The translations under genes and the position numbers were made by a program. The notes under the pieces were generated by a model. It saw nothing but the letters and a program-made list of their open reading frames with translations, did no database searches and was not told the DNA's origin. Source: a virus (Duplodnaviria > Heunggongvirae > Uroviricota > Caudoviricetes). Taken from it: a stretch of DNA of 48,684 bases. The stretch lies in the IMG/VR virus record IMGVR_UViG_2923302340_000001; one strand, 5' to 3'. Positions 1 to 30,775 of the stretch are shown here, piece after piece (position 1 is the first letter of the stretch; each line of letters starts with the position of its first letter).

Positions 1-1435
1 CACAACAGCGCAGAAAAAAGGGAAGAATCCATTCGAAGCTGCAATGCATTCTGTCATGAAAATGACTAAGAACGGAGATCAGAAGTTACTTGGTGAGCTA
101 TTTGGCGATATGCAGGTTCAGAACTTTGTTCGTCCGATGATTCAAAACTGGAAGGAATACCAGAGAATCAAAGCAACATCTCTTGGAGCTGGAAGTGCTG
201 TTATTGACCGCGATTTTGCCAACATAACGAAAGATAATGCGGAGCGATTGAAACAATTACGTATTCAGGCTAGCAATGCATCATTAAGTTTTGGTCAGGC
301 CTTGCAACCTGCTTTGAATGCCGCGCTTAGTGTTTTGGTTCCGCTGATTACAAAAATTAGTGAATTTGTAGCTAACAACCCCAATTTTGTGTCTCAGATA
401 GTGATGGCGGCAGGTGCGTTTCTAACCATGAAAAGTGTGGTTATAGCGTGTAGGGTAGCTATGCTGGCTTTATCTGTAGCGACAAAGCTAACACCCTTCG
501 GGTGGATTCAGATGGCTATATCTGCGCTGGTTGCCGCAGGAATATTGCTCTATCAGAACTGGGATAAGATCAGAGATTATGCTGTCAGAGTTTGGCCTTC
601 TGTTAAGGAATATACAGTTAAATCGTTTGAGGCTATAAAAAACTTTATCTTAAACTTTGATCTCAATGGATGGATTATATCTATGTTTGGTAAAGCATGG
701 GATTATCTTTCCAACATAAACTGGAGTTCGGCAGGAGTAAGAATTTACAGTACATTAATTAGTGCTTTTAAATGGATGTCTCCGCTTCCGTTCTTAATTA
801 AAGCATTTAAACTTACAACAAATTACCTTTCTGGCATTAACTGGAGCGAAACAGGAAAGAAAATCATAGATACACTGGTGTCTGTTTTTATGCGTTTTTC
901 GCCAGTTGGACTATTTATAAGAGCATTCCAATCTGTAACGGCTTATTTATCTGGAATAAACTGGAGTGAGTCAGGTGCAAAAATAATTGAGACGTTAATC
1001 ACTGGGATAAAATCAAAAGCAAATGCTTTAATTAATGAAGTGAAAGGCGTTTTTTCTTCTGTACGTGAGTATTTACCGTTCTCTGACGCGAAAAAAGGTC
1101 CATTCTCACAGCTAACAAAGTCAGGTGGTGCAATAATGACTACTCTGGCATCAGGTGTTAGCAGGAATAACAGCTTACAGAATGCAATAGCAACCAAGTT
1201 CGGGCAATCAAATTTATCACCTCACGGGATATCTGCCGCCGGGACTTCTGGACCTCGCCAGAACGTTAACGCTGTGACTGGTGGAATAACCTATTCACCT
1301 GTAATCAATCTTCCGGCTGGTTCACCAAAGGAAACTGAGGCGGCAGCTAAAAGAGCATTAGATGCGGGATATTCTGATTTTGAGAAGAAATTGAGTGCTC
1401 ATATGTTCCAACAACGGAGATTAAGTTTTGGATGA
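1..1435 (+). CDS. tail tape-measure protein, C-terminal part (5' partial; continues in frame from 47327..48684 across the window boundary)
   Basis: Frame open from nt 2; hydrophobic segment and repeated ...YLSGINWSE(S/T)G... motifs typical of tape-measure C-termini; lies between tail chaperone and baseplate genes. Confidence 0.75.
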   Translation, partial: TTAQKKGKNPFEAAMHSVMKMTKNGDQKLLGELFGDMQVQNFVRPMIQNWKEYQRIKATSLGAGSAVIDRDFANITKDNAERLKQLRIQASNASLSFGQALQPALNAALSVLVPLITKISEFVANNPNFVSQIVMAAGAFLTMKSVVIACRVAMLALSVATKLTPFGWIQMAISALVAAGILLYQNWDKIRDYAVRVWPSVKEYTVKSFEAIKNFILNFDLNGWIISMFGKAWDYLSNINWSSAGVRIYSTLISAFKWMSPLPFLIKAFKLTTNYLSGINWSETGKKIIDTLVSVFMRFSPVGLFIRAFQSVTAYLSGINWSESGAKIIETLITGIKSKANALINEVKGVFSSVREYLPFSDAKKGPFSQLTKSGGAIMTTLASGVSRNNSLQNAIATKFGQSNLSPHGISAAGTSGPRQNVNAVTGGITYSPVINLPAGSPKETEAAAKRALDAGYSDFEKKLSAHMFQQRRLSFG

Positions 1436-7660: not shown

Positions 7661-8080
7661 ATGTCATATTTTTATTCTGCATCGACAAACGGATTTTATT
7701 CGACTGAATTTCACGGCACCAATATTCCTGATGATGCAGTGGAAATCTCGGAATCAGAGTGGAAAACACTGATTAATTCACAGAGTGTCACAAAAATGAT
7801 TACCTGTGGTGAGGACGGTCACCCTGTCATTGTTGACCGTCCTTCTCCAACACCAGAACAATTAGCCTTAATAAATGATGAAAAGAAATCTGCACTGATA
7901 GCAGAAGCAACGAATGTAATAGCGCCGCTTCAGGATGCGGTTGATTTAGGTATGGCAACAAATGATGAAACGAAACTGTTACTGGCATGGAAAAAATATC
8001 GCGTGCTATTGATGCGTATTAATACTTCAACAGCACTCGATATTGAATGGCCTACGCCTCCGGCAGTTCAGGCCAGATGA
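7661..8080 (+). CDS. tail fibre assembly chaperone
   Basis: ATG 5 nt after fibre stop; C-terminus ...[28 protein letters not shown] typical of fibre assembly proteins (track start 7565 overlaps fibre gene). Confidence 0.7.
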
Positions 8081-8654
8081 CATCCGGCGCTGTGCTGGTA
8101 TCTGTTGCCGTCACCGCGTCAATGTAATCCAGCACAGCGTTAAGGCGGGTTGTTTCTGCCTGCGTCAGCTTTCGCCCAGCCTGTAATTTCAGTTGAATCA
8201 GACTAATGGAAGCCATTGCAGCATCAATCAGTGACTGGCGCTGTGCTTCTGCCGCTTCTACTGCGGCACCGTGTTGTGCCTCAACATCCGTCACCCATTT
8301 CTCACCATCCCATTTATCGTATGGCGTTAACGGGGCGATAGTGGTTGTATTTTCAGGATAGTCGCCCGGTGCAGTTATTTCTTTGGCGTCACCCGTTTCG
8401 GTGTTATAGACGATTTCACCACGATGGTCTGGCACATATTCCCATGAATTTAAATCCACAGAACGGCAGATTGCATAACCAGCCTTATGTATGCCGGGGG
8501 CATCTAAACAAGAATATGCCGGAATACCAACACCTACCGCAAGATATTCAGTTGATGCGGAAATATATTCCTTTGTCTCACTGTCATAGTTGTAAACGAT
8601 GATGTTTCCTTCCTGTACGGCAATAAGTTCATTATTCAATATCGCGCTATTCAT
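8052..8654 (-). CDS. tail fibre assembly chaperone, alternative cassette
   Basis: 200 aa; C-terminus ...[24 protein letters not shown]; convergent with 7661..8080. Confidence 0.7.
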
Positions 8655-9104
8655 TATGCAGCTCTCACAATATAGTTAAATGCAATATTTCTCGGACGGG
8701 TTTCACGCCCACCAGGAATTTGAAAAGCATTAGCGGTTGTAGATCCGCCTTCCTGATTAATTCCTGTTGTATAAATACCACTCACACCATTTTGCAATGC
8801 AAATACTGTTGCGGTTCCAGGCCCACCACCGGGCCCAAAATACTTAAGTTCGAACTTTTTAATATCATCACTCTGAATATTCAATAAAGCACGTCCTGTA
8901 TCAATGCCGCGTCCATCATCCCAGCCACGAATAAACTCACCGCGTAAATCAGGAAGTTTTCCTGACGGGTATGCTTTGGCAAGAGTTGGATATTTCACCT
9001 TATCAAAGGCAGCACCGTTGCATTTCAGCCAGCCCGTTGGAGGGGTTGCGGAGGGCCACGGAACAGGTACACCAACAGGCAGCGCCGAACCTTCCCCAAA
9101 CCAA
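8654..9104 (-). CDS. promoterless alternative tail-fibre C-terminal cassette B
   Basis: Shares a 232-bp direct repeat (8881..9112 vs 9367..9599) including the crossover-like site with cassette A; no ATG; motif KYPTLAKAYPSGKLPDLRGEFIRGWDDGRGID; ends ...RPRNIAFNYIVRAA. Confidence 0.45.
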
Positions 9105-9116
9105 CGTTTTTATGCA
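9091..9116 (-). other. candidate crossover site (cassette B)
   Basis: Plus strand CTTCCCCAAACC AA CGTTTTTATGCA; minus strand carries the TTGGTTT core in inverted orientation relative to 7283..7308; overlaps stop of cassette A. Confidence 0.4.
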
Positions 9117-9640
9117 GCCCTCACGATAAAGTTAAATGCAATATTTCGTGGACGGGTTTCACTCCCGCCAGTATTACCGATACTCCCTCGTGAATGAAGT
9201 GTCGGTGATGGAATCAGAGTTCCTCCGGCATCGGCAGCATCAAGCCCCCGGCCTTGCGTATATGCTCTTCTGAAGATTGTCGCCAGTTCCCATTCCTCTT
9301 TTGAATCATACCCATCGTTGGCAACAACAATATGGCGGTGTTTTTCCAGCATCCCAGTCTGAATGCTCAATAAAGCACGTCCTGCATCAATACCACGCCC
9401 GTCATCCCAGCCACGAATAAACTCACCGCGTAAATCAGGAAGTTTTCCTGACGGGTATGCTTTGGCAAGAGTTGGATATTTCACCTTATCAAAGGCAGCA
9501 CCGTTGCATTTCAGCCAGCCCGTTGGAGGGGTTGCGGAGGGCCACGGAACAGGTACACCAACAGGCAGCGCCGAACCTTCCCCCAAACCAACGTTTTTAA
9601 CTTCGTGAACTGAGCTATCTAATAGCATTTTCACTAACAT
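9110..9640 (-). CDS. alternative tail-fibre C-terminal cassette A
   Basis: 176-aa ORF; codons downstream of the crossover-like site are in the frame needed for fusion to the fibre constant part (...DYL | GLGEGSALPVGVPVPW...). Confidence 0.5.
   Translation of the reverse strand: MLVKMLLDSSVHEVKNVGLGEGSALPVGVPVPWPSATPPTGWLKCNGAAFDKVKYPTLAKAYPSGKLPDLRGEFIRGWDDGRGIDAGRALLSIQTGMLEKHRHIVVANDGYDSKEEWELATIFRRAYTQGRGLDAADAGGTLIPSPTLHSRGSIGNTGGSETRPRNIAFNFIVRAA
9578..9603 (-). other. candidate crossover site (cassette A)
   Basis: Plus strand TTCCCCCAAACC AA CGTTTTTAACTT; minus strand AAGTTAAAAACG TT GGTTTGGGGGAA; 45 bp from invertase start. Confidence 0.45.
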
Positions 9641-9647
9641 AAACGGG

Positions 9648-10217
9648 ATGCTTTTTATGCAAATTGGCTATATTCGCGTATCAACAAATGACCAGAATAC
9701 AGATTTACAACGTAATGCTCTGAACTGTGCAGGATGTGAGCTGATTTTTGAGGATAAAATCAGTGGAACGAAGTCAGCCAGACCGGGATTGAAAAAACTG
9801 CTCAGAACGTTATCAGAAGGAGACACGCTGGTTGTCTGGAAGCTGGACAGGTTGGGTAGAAGCATGAAACACCTGATCACTCTTATTGAGGAACTACGGG
9901 AAAAAGGTGTTAATTTCCGTAGTCTGACGGACAGCATTGATACATCAACCCCTATGGGGCGTTTCTTTTTTCACGTCATGGGGGCTTTAGCAGAAATGGA
10001 GCGTGAATTAATTGTTGAGAGAACATTGGCTGGACTGGCAGCAGCTCGCGCACAGGGCCGCATTGGTGGGCGCCGCCCGAAGCTGACAAAAGAACAGCAT
10101 GAGCAAATAGCAAGGCTGATTAAAAACGGTCACGAGAGGAAACAACTGGCGATCATTTACGACATTGGTATATCAACGATTTATCGCTATCACCCTGTAG
10201 GAAGTGATTCAGCTTAA
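9648..10217 (+). CDS. DNA invertase, Hin/Gin/Cin/Pin-type serine recombinase
   Basis: N-terminus (M)QIGYIRVSTNDQNTDLQRNAL, ...TLVVWKLDRLGRSMKHL..., ...GRFFFHVMGALAEMERELIVERT..., C-terminal HTH; alternative ATG at 9657. Confidence 0.9.
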   Translation: MLFMQIGYIRVSTNDQNTDLQRNALNCAGCELIFEDKISGTKSARPGLKKLLRTLSEGDTLVVWKLDRLGRSMKHLITLIEELREKGVNFRSLTDSIDTSTPMGRFFFHVMGALAEMERELIVERTLAGLAAARAQGRIGGRRPKLTKEQHEQIARLIKNGHERKQLAIIYDIGISTIYRYHPVGSDSA

Positions 10218-10420
10218 ACAGGAAGATAGTTTTTCCTGCGATGATGCCCTATCTACGCTTTACCGCAGGTTTCCGGCTGGGAATCATTGACTGGAGTTAG
10301 GCCAGTAGTATGATGCTCGCAACACGAGATCCGATTTAGATCCTTTTACTGGTGGATTATCGTTCGATTAGCGAGAGACTTCGTGCATGACCGAAAGTGT
10401 TGTGGTAGAGTTCTCTTAAA

Positions 10421-10435
10421 ACCACGTAACGTGGT
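10421..10435. promoter_or_regulatory. ACCAC-N5-GTGGT palindrome (same motif as cI-cro operators) upstream of replicon
   Basis: ACCACGTAACGTGGT, perfect 5-bp arms with 5-bp spacer. Confidence 0.35.
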
Positions 10436-10475
10436 TACGATTGTGGGTGTCTGGTTGGAAACTGACCAGATATGG

Positions 10476-10600
10476 AAACAAAAAGCCCGCAGATAAATCT
10501 GCGGGCTTCTTGCGACATCCACGGAAAACCAACAAAACAATCCATGGGCGCCTCGACAACTCCCATTATACGTTGGTTTTCCGTGGACGCAAGAGCGAAC
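10476..10600 (-). ncRNA. candidate antisense RNA (CopA-like) opposite the repA leader
   Basis: Minus-strand intrinsic terminator (GCCCGCAG-ATAAAT-CTGCGGGC then T-run, 10476..10506) and 15-bp perfect stem 10519..10533 / 10572..10586 directly upstream of repA start. Confidence 0.3.
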
Positions 10601-10602
10601 AT

Positions 10603-11451
10603 ATGGATAGACCAATGCCGTCTCTACGTTCAGCTTACGTTTGTAATTTGTCGCCGGAGTTCCAGCCTCCAAAGCACCATACGCACAAGCTGCCGCTGGT
10701 GTTATCTGATGCTTTACAGCGCATTTATGGGCGTGATCTTACGTGTGAGGTTGCGTTCTACGTTAATCAACCGTCAGAGCGGAAGCGCCGGATAAACGAG
10801 CATCGTCGTCGGGCGATTAATGCTGTGATTGCTGCGATTTTGCACCATGTAAACATCATTTCTAAGCGGGTTCTGGCCAGTGCTGAGGCGTTGGCTGATT
10901 TTTGCGGCCTGTCTACCGTATCCGAAGCTGGGAACAAATCTATAACGCGCTGTACAAGGGCGTTGTCGCAACTGAAAGCGTTAGGTTTTATTGATTATGA
11001 ACGTCGCTGGGATCGGGTGAATAAACAGTATTGGCCAGCGAAAATAGAGATTCGTGATCAACTGCTGGAAACAGTTGGTATTACTGAACAAGCATGGAGA
11101 CGTGCGGTTAGCCAGAAACTTAATTACTTCAATGCGAAGAATAGCGAACGGCTTAAAAAAGCGATAACGGAGGCTGATTATAAGCGTATTGTTATTCAGG
11201 AGCAGATGGAGAATGTATGGCGTCAGAGGAAGACGGCCAGAGAGATAAAGGCAAAACAGAAAGCAGCGGAGAGAGCTGCGCGTCTTGTTCGGGAAAAGGG
11301 AGAGGCCGAACTTCGTCATCAAATCACTAGAGAGGTTAGCCAGGAATTTGCTGATGGCATGTATCCAGGTGCTGACCTTGCATATTTACGCTCCCTCGTT
11401 GATCAGCGTTATAACAGGCTAAGAAAGACCTGGACATCACTCCAACATTAA
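10603..11451 (+). CDS. repA: replication initiator RepA, IncFII RepA1-like
   Basis: ...RRRAINAVIAAILHH...CGLSTVSEAGNKSITRCTRALSQLKALGFIDYER... resembles RepA1 of IncFII plasmids (recollection); track start 10441 is an in-frame upstream extension; ATG at 10603 or 10615. Confidence 0.7.
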   Translation: MDRPMPSLRSAYVCNLSPEFQPPKHHTHKLPLVLSDALQRIYGRDLTCEVAFYVNQPSERKRRINEHRRRAINAVIAAILHHVNIISKRVLASAEALADFCGLSTVSEAGNKSITRCTRALSQLKALGFIDYERRWDRVNKQYWPAKIEIRDQLLETVGITEQAWRRAVSQKLNYFNAKNSERLKKAITEADYKRIVIQEQMENVWRQRKTAREIKAKQKAAERAARLVREKGEAELRHQITREVSQEFADGMYPGADLAYLRSLVDQRYNRLRKTWTSLQH

Positions 11452-11486: not shown

Positions 11487-11700
11487 TTATCCACGTCGCA
11501 ATAAAATAGCTGTTCAAAAAACAAGCTAAATTAATTTTCTCTAAACCTGAACACAGCGAAAATATCGTCTTTACAGGCATCAACTAATCAAGTTATCCAC
11601 AGTTTTGATATGTATATGCAAATGGTTTTTTATAATAGATGCACTAAACAAATAAATGCAAAATCACTTTCTTTTATTAAAACTTTCTTTATTTAACTTA
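11487..11700. other. putative plasmid origin (oriR-like)
   Basis: DnaA-box-like TTATCCACG (11487..11495) and perfect TTATCCACA (11593..11601) followed by ~100 bp AT-rich DNA, directly downstream of repA. Confidence 0.4.
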
Positions 11701-17498: not shown

Positions 17499-17662
17499 GG
17501 TGATAGTTCCCTTAAAGGTTAAGGATACTCACCACCGTCTGGTTCCAATCATTGGGTGGTGAGACGTACAGGGTTGGAACTACCGGTCACCATGGAATCC
17601 GGCGAGTCTTACGACTCCCCCGCACGCCCCACCATAATTTGGGTGTAGCAGTGCTTTACGCA

Positions 17663-17683
17663 TAAAAAAACCGCTAACGCGGT
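17663..17683 (-). terminator. candidate intrinsic terminator (minus strand)
   Basis: ACCGC-TAAC-GCGGT followed on the minus strand by T7. Confidence 0.4.
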
Positions 17684-17828
17684 ATGCGCCATGATGATTA
17701 TCGGGGTTCCAATCCCGACCGTAGATTTTGCTACGGCTCGGAAAGTGTCCACCAATGGCGCATTCATGTCAATACGGCGGGATTTTAACAGAGACAACCA
17801 CATAGCGTGGGTTTATTGGTAGGCAGAA

Positions 17829-17857: not shown

Positions 17858-18234
17858 CTTTCGTGCTGATCGGATTCGCGGTCCTTTCAGCATTACGTTG
17901 TTGTATAAATACAACCACGCAAGCACAAACAGCGATCATATTCTTACCCAACTGAATAAAATTGTCCAAATAAATTTGGTTTATTAGAGCACAAAAGCGA
18001 GTGATTTTTGTGGTGTGTATTTAAGTTGATGAAAAACAATATGTTTTTATCCCTTCATTATGAAGGGGCTGCGGTGTAACATTACGCGGGGCCTTTTCGC
18101 CGATTCGCAACCGGGCACCGACTTTCAGGAAAGGATTATCCACTTGCCGTACCACGCAGGCACAAACAGCGTGCTTGCTCTCGCGTCATTTTCGTCGGTG
18201 GGGATGCCGTGAAACGGCCTGTAAGGGCCACACA

Positions 18235-18357
18235 ATGAAAAAATACTACATGTGTATTTTTATCGTTGTTACTGGAGCTTTGTTTACGCCACATGGGGAG
18301 GGTTGGAAGATTACTGATAACGCTCTGAATGTGACGATAAACATTAGCAGCAAGTAG
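18235..18357 (+). CDS. small hydrophobic peptide (40 aa)
   Basis: MKKYYMCIFIVVTGALF...; followed by a strong terminator. Confidence 0.2.
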   Translation: MKKYYMCIFIVVTGALFTPHGEGWKITDNALNVTINISSK

Positions 18358-18362
18358 CGATT

Positions 18363-18386
18363 AGGCCCCTTCGGGGGCTTTTTTTA
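18363..18386 (+). terminator. intrinsic terminator
   Basis: AGGCCCC-TTCG-GGGGC followed by T7. Confidence 0.6.
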
Positions 18387-19568: not shown

Positions 19569-19574
19569 GTGTTT

Positions 19575-19674
19575 GATTATATAATTCTATAAATCTATAT
19601 TTATAGAATGAGGTAAGCATAACCAACTTTTGAGCGGATGAAAAGCACTTTATATAATTATATAAATCTATAAT
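19575..19674. promoter_or_regulatory. partition-operon promoter with two AT-rich palindromic boxes (candidate centromere/operator)
   Basis: GATTATATAATTCTATAAATCTATATTTATAGAAT (19575..19609) and AAAAGCACTTTATATAATTATATAAATCTATAAT (19641..19674) upstream of parA. Confidence 0.4.
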
Positions 19675-23355: not shown

Positions 23356-23414
23356 AAGTGTCATTTTGAGCTGTTTTGGTGATTTGTAGACACCGGGAAT
23401 ATCGGAAAATCTAT

Positions 23415-23525
23415 AAATATATAATTATATATTTATATAAAAAGTGCTTTACAGGTGGGAAAAAATTTCCTAAGGTTATACCCAAAACCGAGCGATACCC
23501 GCCCTGGTTAAACCGGAGAAATCTG
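23415..23525 (+). promoter_or_regulatory. repeated promoter/leader cassette, copy 2
   Basis: TATATAATTATATA (23418..23431), TTTATATAAA, TTTACAGGTGGG..., conserved leader, ATG at 23526. Confidence 0.45.
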
Positions 23526-24624: not shown

Positions 24625-24650
24625 TATATAGAATTATATATTTATATAAA
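24625..24650. promoter_or_regulatory. AT-rich palindromic box upstream of 24671 gene
   Basis: TATATAGAATTATATA + TTTATATAAA. Confidence 0.35.
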
Positions 24651-24670
24651 TGTATAAGGACGCCTCGACA

Positions 24671-29523: not shown

Positions 29524-29554
29524 TATATATTTCTATAATTATATAAATATATAG
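29522..29554. promoter_or_regulatory. AT-rich palindromic box downstream of lysis genes
   Basis: AATATATATTTCTATAATTATATAAATATATAG. Confidence 0.3.
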
Positions 29555-29692: not shown

Positions 29693-29768
29693 GGCCCCTT
29701 AGCTTAGTGGTTAGAGCAGGCGACTCATAATCGCACGGTCATCGGTTCAAATCCGGTAGGGGCCACCA
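29693..29768 (+). tRNA. tRNA with anticodon CAU (Met, or lysidine-modified Ile2 type)
   Basis: 76-nt cloverleaf: acceptor stem GGCCCCU/AGGGGCC, T-loop TTCAAAT, anticodon loop CTCATAA, encoded 3' CCA. Confidence 0.85.
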
Positions 29769-30076: not shown

Positions 30077-30664
30077 ATGGAGGCAATTGCATTGTTTAAT
30101 CTGATTTATGCAGATCCCCCCTGGGAATACAAAGATAAGTGTAAGGATGGGAATCGTGGAGCTGGTTTTAAGTATCCAACGATGAAAGCTGAGGATATTG
30201 CTCGTATTCCTGTCTGGCAGCTTGCTAATCCTGAATCGTGTTTGTTGGCCATGTGGTGGGTTCCGACTCAGCCAGAAGAAGCGTTGCTGGTGGTGAAAGC
30301 ATGGGGATTCAGGCTTATGACCATGAAGGGCTTCACATGGAACAAATGTGGTAGCCGACAACCAGATAAGCTGGTGATGGGGATGGGGCATATGACTCGT
30401 GCAAACAGTGAAGATTGCTTGTTTGCGGTAAAAGGCAAATTGCCGACCCGCCTTGATGCGGGGATCATTCAGTCGTTTACATCGCCTCGTCTGGAGCATT
30501 CTCGGAAGCCTGATGTGGTTCGTGACAAGCTGGTAAGGCTGTTAGGTGATGTTCCTCGTATTGAGCTGTTTGCTCGCGGTGATTTACCTGATGGTTGGCA
30601 TGGCTGGGGCAACCAGTGCAATGGAGGTATCCAGTTGCATGATGCTCTCTGGCAAGTGGCATAG
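30077..30664 (+). CDS. DNA adenine methyltransferase, MT-A70-like
   Basis: N-terminal ...IYADPPWEYKDK... (DPPW motif). Confidence 0.65.
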   Translation: MEAIALFNLIYADPPWEYKDKCKDGNRGAGFKYPTMKAEDIARIPVWQLANPESCLLAMWWVPTQPEEALLVVKAWGFRLMTMKGFTWNKCGSRQPDKLVMGMGHMTRANSEDCLFAVKGKLPTRLDAGIIQSFTSPRLEHSRKPDVVRDKLVRLLGDVPRIELFARGDLPDGWHGWGNQCNGGIQLHDALWQVA

Positions 30665-30665
30665 A

Positions 30666-30775
30666 ATTATATAATTATAGGTTTATATAAAAAGTGCTTT
30701 ACAAGTGGGAAAAAATTTCCTAAGGTTATACCCGAAACCGAGCGATACCCGCCCTGGTTAAACCGGAGAAATCTG
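30666..30775 (+). promoter_or_regulatory. repeated promoter/leader cassette, copy 3
   Basis: ATTATATAATTATAG, TTTATATAAA, TTTACAAGTGGG..., conserved leader, ATG at 30776. Confidence 0.45.

Follow-up and report, generated by a model that had tools for sequence, protein, structure and literature searches.

The stretch of DNA analyzed here (the window; 48,684 nucleotides [nt] of a Caudoviricetes virus, IMG/VR record IMGVR_UViG_2923302340_000001) is a complete or near-complete phage-plasmid of 48.7 kilobases (kb) that includes tail-fibre genes. Its replication initiator gene, repA, follows a long leader in which a minus-strand intrinsic terminator, a perfect inverted repeat, and a promoter facing the terminator lie close together (Table 1). 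Antisense control is textbook knowledge for IncFII-type initiators, so a counter-transcript is expected at this place, and the sequence makes it very probable that a copy-control antisense RNA is encoded there. Our overall model, to which we assign a probability of roughly 0.6, is that 10477-10602 forms a copy-control module in which an RNA of ~80-85 nt would act on the repA mRNA and cause its start codons to be buried.

The product of repA matches Pfam PF02387 (E = 1.9e-43; 149 bits against a cutoff of 22.9) and NCBIfam NF040977, RepA_IncFII_LM (231 bits, cutoff 70), and stays below the narrow IncFII equivalog TIGR03474 (78.8 bits, cutoff 446.9). RepA homologues of 277 amino acids (aa) all start at an ATG aligned with window positions 10615-10618. 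From the sequence, the predicted start of RepA is ATG 10615 or ATG 10603, which makes 10321-10602 a putative untranslated leader. A candidate promoter upstream, whose TTGACT and TAT(G/C)AT hexamers are conserved in Salmonella and other relatives, would give an mRNA leader of ~290 nt (~10321 to 10614). On the far side of the gene, the single perfect DnaA box, TTATCCACA, sits in a 630-nt noncoding stretch 3' of repA, and the region around it is probably the replication origin.

To compare this leader among relatives, we sampled it from plasmids, IMG/VR contigs, metagenomes, and assemblies. This yielded 15 distinct alleles in five sequence types: an Escherichia coli type (11 alleles), two Salmonella types (L002 and L003), and the types L012 and L019. 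Loci L021, L031, L032, and L033 from a metagenome 21-mer scan were discarded as chance matches or unrelated, and a scan of genome contigs with RepA peptides confirmed nothing. A search for a leader peptide in 13 variants returned no open reading frame (ORF) that had a conserved start and ended at the repA start; an upstream frame ending in ATGA occurs in L012 and L019 only and lacks a conserved initiation codon. No copB was found; the gene directly 5' of the control region is a DNA invertase (9648-10217).

Table 1. Features of the repA control region and its surroundings (window coordinates)
Feature	Position	Strand	Remarks
Candidate repA promoter, TTGACT-16-TATGAT	10287..10314	+	10/12 matches to consensus
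Predicted antisense RNA, ~80-85 nt	10477..10560	-	Delimited by promoter and terminator; 3' end in U-run
Stem-loop 2 (SL2), terminator hairpin, 16 base pairs (bp)	10478..10513	-	GC core GCCCGCAG/CTGCGGGC plus U-run
Large repA leader stem-loop, 6 + 16 bp	10509..10593	+	Apical hairpin 10544-10548/10561-10565 conserved
Stem-loop 1 (SL1)	10514..10552	-	Helices GGCG/UGUC and CCAUGGA/UCCGUGG; apical loop 13-18 nt (10526-10540 in window)
Hypervariable, indel-rich spot	10524..10543		SL1 apical loop; in the mRNA, distal 5' arm and adjoining unpaired stretch
Antisense -10 hexamer TATAAT (perfect)	10565..10570	-	16 nt from -35; invariant in all alleles
Predicted alternative hairpin	10571..10617	+	CGUUGGUUUUCCGUG (10571-10585) with UAUGGA (10602-10607) and AGACCAAUG (10609-10617)
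Antisense -35 hexamer TTGCGT	10587..10592	-	Invariant in 15/15 alleles
repA (IncFII/L-M family initiator)	10615..11451	+	Start ATG 10615 (278 aa) or ATG 10603 (282 aa)
Perfect DnaA box TTATCCACA	11593..11601	+	Single consensus match, 142 nt past repA stop

Read on the minus strand, 10506..10477 is GCCCGCAG-ATTTAT-CTGCGGGC followed by TTTTTGTTT. The GC core spans 8 bp and is lengthened by A/U pairs to a hairpin of 16 bp, with a tail that reads UUUUUGUUU on the minus strand and UUCUUGCG on the plus strand. On the transcribed (minus) strand, a GC-rich hairpin thus stands directly before a U-run, as in an intrinsic terminator. The terminator proposed in the original prediction, which had been made from the letters of the window alone, is therefore confirmed by direct reading, and its proposed distance of about 100 nt from the repA start agrees with the 97-110 nt counted from ATG 10603 or ATG 10615. 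The list produced by a generic terminator scan did not contain it; in our reading this is an artefact of the tool, as the stem extension uses up part of the T-run.

The inverted repeat between terminator and repA is perfect over 16 bp (10518-10533/10572-10587), with 38 nt between its arms, and is lengthened by a further 6 bp at 10509-10514/10588-10593. The original prediction had its perfection and its 38-nt loop right and its length, given as 15 bp, short by one. It is the sole perfect inverted repeat of at least 16 bp with separated arms in the window. Folded as a minus-strand 125-mer, the region reaches -68.5 kcal/mol, compared with -34.7 ± 3.7 kcal/mol for shuffled sequences (z = -9.2; 0/200 as good), and the plus-strand leader also folds far better than its shuffles (z = -7.1). 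Terminator and stem recur in every relative found, with compensatory changes, and are not chance features.

The candidate antisense promoter lies inside this hairpin. Compared with the sigma-70 consensus, its -10 hexamer matches at 6/6 positions and its -35 hexamer at 3/6 (TTG), with a spacer of 16 nt; the spacer between the two hexamers is formed by the repeat's 3' arm, and the -10 hexamer falls within the 38-nt loop. The pattern TTGNNN-16..18-TATAAT occurs twice on the two strands of the window (97 kb in all; 2.3 copies in shuffles), and one of these copies is placed 60 nt upstream of the minus-strand terminator, on the same strand. A relaxed scan of 10463-10762 found TTGCGT-16-TATAAT to be the only minus-strand promoter-like site conserved in the five sequence types. 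A more distant relative, L016, has a strong minus-strand TTGAAA-16-TATAAT at the equivalent position, with 51 nt between its -10 hexamer and the repA start (45 nt in the window), and the antisense -10 aligns with conserved ATTATA columns of the Rfam family PK-repBA in L016 and a second outgroup relative, L005.

From this promoter, transcription would start at ~10557-10561, and we consider it probable that the antisense RNA begins inside the hairpin at ~10560. Because such an RNA starts near 10560, inside the loop, the 16-bp stem would be a structure of the repA mRNA and not of the antisense RNA. The original prediction had implied that the stem-loop is part of the antisense RNA; with the sole conserved promoter-like site inside the 38-nt loop, the RNA would most likely carry the complement of the 5' arm only. 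The interval near 10590..10640, where a minus-strand promoter had been expected, offers weak and nonconserved candidates, and none in the Salmonella types L002 and L003.

The predicted antisense RNA consists of a 5' tail of ~8 nt, SL1, and SL2, the terminator. This two-hairpin fold is found in 15/15 alleles, and an RNAalifold consensus independently agrees with it. Counted on the alignment, 99.1% of the cells pair, compared with 44-53% when the partners are slid. In SL1, one G-C pair is replaced by A-U or by G-U and a U-G pair by U-A; in SL2, a compensatory change from A-U to G-C is present in L012 and L019. Several SL1 pairs are G-U, and since their plus-strand equivalents would be C-A mismatches, SL1 reads as a minus-strand helix. 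Three alleles (L009, L048, and L051) have bases inserted in the 5' arm of the plus-strand stem and keep SL1 intact, which argues for SL1, rather than the 16-bp stem, as the fold that belongs to the antisense RNA.

Searches of Rfam (gathering scores for the whole window and E <= 10 on both strands of 10200-10900) returned no counter-transcript family, and the sub-threshold matches to Thr_leader, trpB, and CsrC were rejected, as they reflect only a hairpin plus a terminator. The RNA is hence not CopA-like in the family sense in which it had been proposed, 10200-10900 being free of CopA, PK-repBA, and PK-repZ matches even at E <= 10.

Conservation sets the block 10477-10602 apart from its surroundings. 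Two parts of it are 92-100% identical to the diverged types (L002, L003, L012, and L019), with just 45-77% identity in the short segment that separates them. In the same types the upstream leader is 66-74% and repA 66-77% identical, and for positions 10603-10700 identity among relatives is no more than 66-72%. A block better conserved than the gene under its control, here repA, is unusual for antisense control regions; overlapping constraints may account for this.

Among the 11 E. coli-type alleles, all differences in a 134-nt block (10477-10602 plus 8 upstream nt) fall within 10524-10543. They comprise substitutions and indels of 1-5 nt, including changes in CAA units and A-run length and a GGAAA duplication, which suggests replication slippage on (CAA)n and the A-run. 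An antisense control region with a specificity loop is expected to look like this, as a very strongly constrained island that contains a single hypervariable spot. In IncFII plasmids the loop sequence is the incompatibility determinant, and the hypervariable SL1 loop is likely to be the specificity (incompatibility) determinant here. The original claim of countertranscript copy-number control is thus supported in its general form by the repA family, the direction of the terminator, the conserved promoter facing it, and the pattern of conservation; the mechanism of plasmid R1 does not carry over, as tap and copB are both missing.

The plus-strand stem has its own pattern of change. In the alignment, 98.2% of its cells are paired, with G-C replaced by A-U in four sequences and A-U by U-A in two. 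The predicted 5' end of the antisense RNA (~10560) lies 40-55 nt before the AUGs, so that its target stays clear of the start region. With the mRNA positions that the antisense RNA would cover blocked in constraint folding, every sequence type refolded into an alternative hairpin (Table 1) that covers both candidate AUGs, and the unpaired probability of AUG 10615 went from ~0.9-1.0 to ~0. The Salmonella, L012, and L019 types retain this hairpin despite their differing start-region sequence: the 3'-arm partners vary (AGACCAAUG, CCAGCG, UUCAAC, and UUCAACG), and all of them complement CGUUGG(U/A). It was judged per sequence, because MAFFT misaligns the divergent start regions, and in five sequences with three divergent start regions it beats 99-99.9% of shuffled start regions (2-20/2000 as good). 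The 3' arm of the stem and the antisense RNA carry the same sequence, GUUGGUUUUCCGUGGA, and both complement the 5' arm.

These results suggest the following mechanism. The minus-strand promoter TTGCGT-16-TATAAT (10592..10565) would constitutively drive an untranslated RNA of ~80-85 nt, fully complementary to the repA leader from 10477 to 10560. In free mRNA, the 5' arm (10509-10533) would pair with the 3' arm (10572-10593) and leave the start region open, so that the large stem would serve as an anti-sequestor, with the antisense RNA aimed at its 5' arm. Three elements are unpaired in each of the two RNAs and complement one another: the hypervariable stretch, the 5' tail of the antisense RNA with loop 10549-10560, and the loops of the two terminator hairpins (the plus-strand hairpin, 10485-10506, has the loop AUAAAU). 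Pairing might nucleate at the unpaired hypervariable positions 10534-10543 and at the apical loop 10549-10560, after which the antisense RNA would displace the 3' arm from the 5' arm. Once released, the 3' arm would pair with 10602-10617 and bury the start codons, so that a higher copy number, by raising antisense dosage, would lower RepA translation. Which relatives cross-react would depend on the SL1 loop.

None of the plus-strand hairpins before repA is followed by a U-run, and transcription attenuation of the pT181/pIP501 type was rejected on this ground. The induced hairpin ends at 10617, within the start of the coding region, and is followed by CCGUCUCUACG; because it lacks a U-run, translational repression is expected and not attenuation. 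That the antisense RNA acts through induced start-codon burial is plausible, with about even odds.

Several points weigh against this model. Sequence is the basis for the predicted RNA as well as for its 5' end and its effect. The -35 hexamer is weak, a promoter scan at standard threshold did not report the TTGCGT-16-TATAAT site, and the invariance of the hexamers could be explained by constraint on RNA structure instead of promoter function. Covariation amounts to few independent events, with 2-3 double-change pairs in ~5 sequence types; one substitution suits plus-strand pairing (U-G in L003) and another minus-strand pairing (C-A on the plus strand in L019). Part of the conservation of the block could come from recent recombination. 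The mRNA stem is predicted at ~-30 kcal/mol, so strand invasion would have to be kinetically feasible or binding cotranscriptional, and the alternative hairpin is a thermodynamic prediction on short fragments.

The alternative that survives best, which we nevertheless regard as unlikely, is a longer antisense RNA (~115-125 nt) that starts beyond 10590, holds both the 16-bp stem-loop and the terminator, and makes a CopA-like loop-loop contact. The very stable fold of the 125-nt minus-strand RNA is what it would predict, and in the window 22/22 pairs of the big stem are Watson-Crick, so that either strand is possible; the L019 position that is C-A on the plus strand is G-U on the minus strand. 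Such an RNA would need a promoter upstream of the stem, where weak sites can be pointed out in the window (TAGAGA-17-TATGTT; 8/12) and in L012 and L019 (ATTACA-18-TATCAT; 9/12). No promoter-like site there is conserved, however, L002 and L003 have none, and the low identity of 10603-10700 among relatives also speaks against it, as do the strong conserved TATAAT inside the loop, the natural 5'-arm bulges that spare SL1 of the shorter RNA, and the lack of an Rfam CopA match.

Somewhat less probable again is that there is no regulatory antisense RNA, and that the hairpins are cis-acting elements of the repA leader (for mRNA stability, translation, or binding of RepA or another protein) with a terminator that stops stray transcription through repA. 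Both the fold of the plus-strand leader and the covariation of the big stem fit an element of the mRNA only. This explanation leaves unaccounted for the conserved TATAAT with TTG at 16 nt that faces the terminator, the confinement of hypervariability to the apical loop of a minus-strand hairpin, and the SL1 G-U pairs, which only the minus strand could form; moreover, antisense control is established for the initiator family, and the nearest relatives carry control elements known to Rfam.

A DNA-level role, with the inverted repeat as an operator or origin-associated site for a dimeric protein (for example, in RepA autoregulation), appears very improbable. Symmetric changes in the arms would also be expected of a palindromic binding site, but the two arms here are separated by 38 bp that hold a promoter -10, insertions of 1-5 nt in natural alleles affect a single arm, substitutions of the G-U type are tolerated, and the likely origin, with its DnaA box, is downstream of repA.

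Least credible of all is that the interval encodes an N-terminal extension of RepA, as public annotation often has it. In the window, the repA frame stays open upstream as far as 10441, and the Prokaryotic Genome Annotation Pipeline (PGAP) gives RepA lengths of 278, 282, or 325/326 aa among near-identical plasmids (L001 and L046-L057), with 326 aa in ATCC 25922; the long form, from the ATG that corresponds to window 10472, reads across the predicted RNA gene. We rejected the extension because its frame is inconsistent between alleles (leader indels are not multiples of three, so that the long form is in frame only where a hot-spot indel shifts the frame, and the in-frame open stretch ranges over 72-207 nt, with 72 nt in L003 and 105 nt in L002), and further against it are the inconsistency of PGAP itself, the start shared by all 277-aa homologues, and family profiles that begin only at ~10627-10642 (Pfam at residue 63 of the 10441 ORF; NCBIfam at residue 10 of the 10615 ORF). 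The 325/326-aa annotation very likely has the wrong start.

The carrier of this module is widespread. Approximately 60 near-identical, nonmobilizable plasmids of 46-52 kb were found in Escherichia, Klebsiella, and Salmonella, among them the 48.5-kb plasmid NZ_CP009073 of the reference strain E. coli ATCC 25922, and three 49-kb phages isolated on Yersinia pestis (EV76-CN) match the window too. Of 5426 complete E. coli genomes, 70 (~1.3%) carry the leader, every time on a plasmid. A provisional label, pSLy3-group, was dropped, because the literature places pSLy3 in the ~100-kb SSU5 supergroup. We found no literature on this replicon or its RNA.

Elsewhere on the phage-plasmid, a tail-fibre cassette (8052-10217) adjoins the Cin/Gin/Hin-type invertase and is invertible, its minus-strand ORFs 8654-8998 and 9110-9640 sharing KYPTLAKAYPSGKLPDLRGEFIRGWDDGRGID; some relatives lack the invertase, and there the leader abuts a tail-fibre assembly gene. 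A C4 antisense RNA (17552-17639, minus strand) and isrK (17664-17737, minus strand), both at Rfam gathering level, mark 17552-17737 as a P1/P7-style c4 immunity region. It is followed by a ryfA match, also at gathering level (18087-18385, plus strand); ryfA-like RNAs are normally chromosomal. A tRNA-Met (anticodon CAT) is encoded at 29693-29768, and 5' of it lies a 34-nt inverted repeat with 85% complementarity (29600-29633/29649-29682). AT-rich palindromes on TATAATTATA occur at five sites (19574-19665, 23412-23437, 24634-24657, 29524-29553, and 30661-30688) and may be a repeated phage promoter or operator motif; the second promoter-like pattern of the window, TTGNNN-17-TATAAT (19630, plus strand), adjoins one of them.

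Although its carrier is a common E. coli phage-plasmid, the predicted RNA has no annotation and falls in no Rfam family, and public records often read through its gene as a 326-aa RepA. Of practical value are the correction of RepA annotation and the typing of this common phage-plasmid family, for which the hypervariable loop is a ready marker that also lends itself to compatibility prediction.

Among known systems, CopA/CopT of plasmid R1 (IncFII; RF00042) shares the initiator family, PF02387, and the general layout, a small (~85-90 nt), constitutive counter-transcript of two stem-loops placed ~50-140 nt 5' of the repA start. It differs in that the window has no match to the CopA covariance model, no tap-like peptide coupled to repA, and no copB; the outgroup relatives L016 and L005 have sub-threshold CopA matches (34.3 and 27.9 bits, cutoff 60). 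Here, the recognition loop of 13-18 nt stands on a short stem apart from the terminator hairpin, the promoter lies within the mRNA's own stem-loop, and the predicted effect is start-codon sequestration, whereas CopA blocks translation of a leader peptide.

The RNAI of the I-complex plasmids (IncB pMU720 and ColIb-P9; RF01089, PK-repBA, and RF01087, PK-repZ) is the type carried by the nearest outgroup RepA relatives, with PK-repBA matches of 60.4 bits in L005 and 49.3 bits in L016 (cutoff 45; RepA 37% and 62% identical, respectively). The two arrangements resemble each other in the antisense -10 (ATTATA on the plus strand), which is at a similar distance from repA and has a 16-nt spacer in both, and in the A-run and hairpin that form the antisense terminator at the same relative place. 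Unlike these relatives, the window matches neither PK-repBA nor PK-repZ. It lacks the long stem-loop I with its UUGGCG loop, which is reduced to the 8-bp GC core, and it lacks a repB-like leader ORF; ~37 extra nt carry the new SL1. An I-complex pseudoknot (GGCG/CGCC) was sought and rejected, as no CGCC occurs in 10588-10617 near the ribosome-binding site.

L016, a read-archive assembly, has a full I-complex-type region (1337-1504), with the UUGGCG loop and a CGCC near the ribosome-binding site; its leader ORF, ending at 1504, overlaps the repA GTG at 1501, and two helix-turn-helix genes lie upstream. In the Citrobacter-type sequences L017 and L018 (1016-1504; RepA ~60% identical), a 162-aa ORF that overlaps the repA start replaces the leader. 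This ORF has a weak IncFII_repA match in L017 and may be a partial duplication of the initiator.

In function, RNAI of the staphylococcal plasmid pSK41, a RepA_N replicon, comes closest among described cases. That RNA, ~83 nt long, has two stem-loops and a 5' tail; its complement in the leader lies well 5' of the start region, and the proposed induced stem-loop sequesters the ribosome-binding site without termination (PMC5703833). The predicted logic is the same here. The sequences show no similarity, and neither the initiator family nor the host phylum is related, so the analogy is one of mechanism only, and the antisense promoter is here embedded in the anti-sequestor stem. The pre-emptor systems of pT181 (RNAI) and pIP501 (RNAIII) have a 5' element that pairs with the middle one unless bound by the antisense RNA, in which case the middle element pairs with the 3' element (PMC5703833). 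This three-element wiring is common to both; the induced hairpin differs in covering the start codons and in being followed by CCGUCUCUACG and not by a U-run.

The replicons being unrelated, the resemblance to pSK41 and pT181 is convergent. If the model is true, this initiator family would have a third way of being regulated, one that uses neither leader peptide nor pseudoknot, buries the start codon through the antisense RNA, has its promoter nested in the target stem, and converges on the logic of these Gram-positive systems. More speculatively, a self-contained translational pre-emptor switch may have replaced leader-peptide and pseudoknot control in this lineage, with an RNA that mimics the 3' arm, a promoter within the stem, and a slippage-prone loop whose sequence diversifies far more quickly than the remainder of the plasmid, which would let relatives escape one another's copy control and hence incompatibility or superinfection interference.

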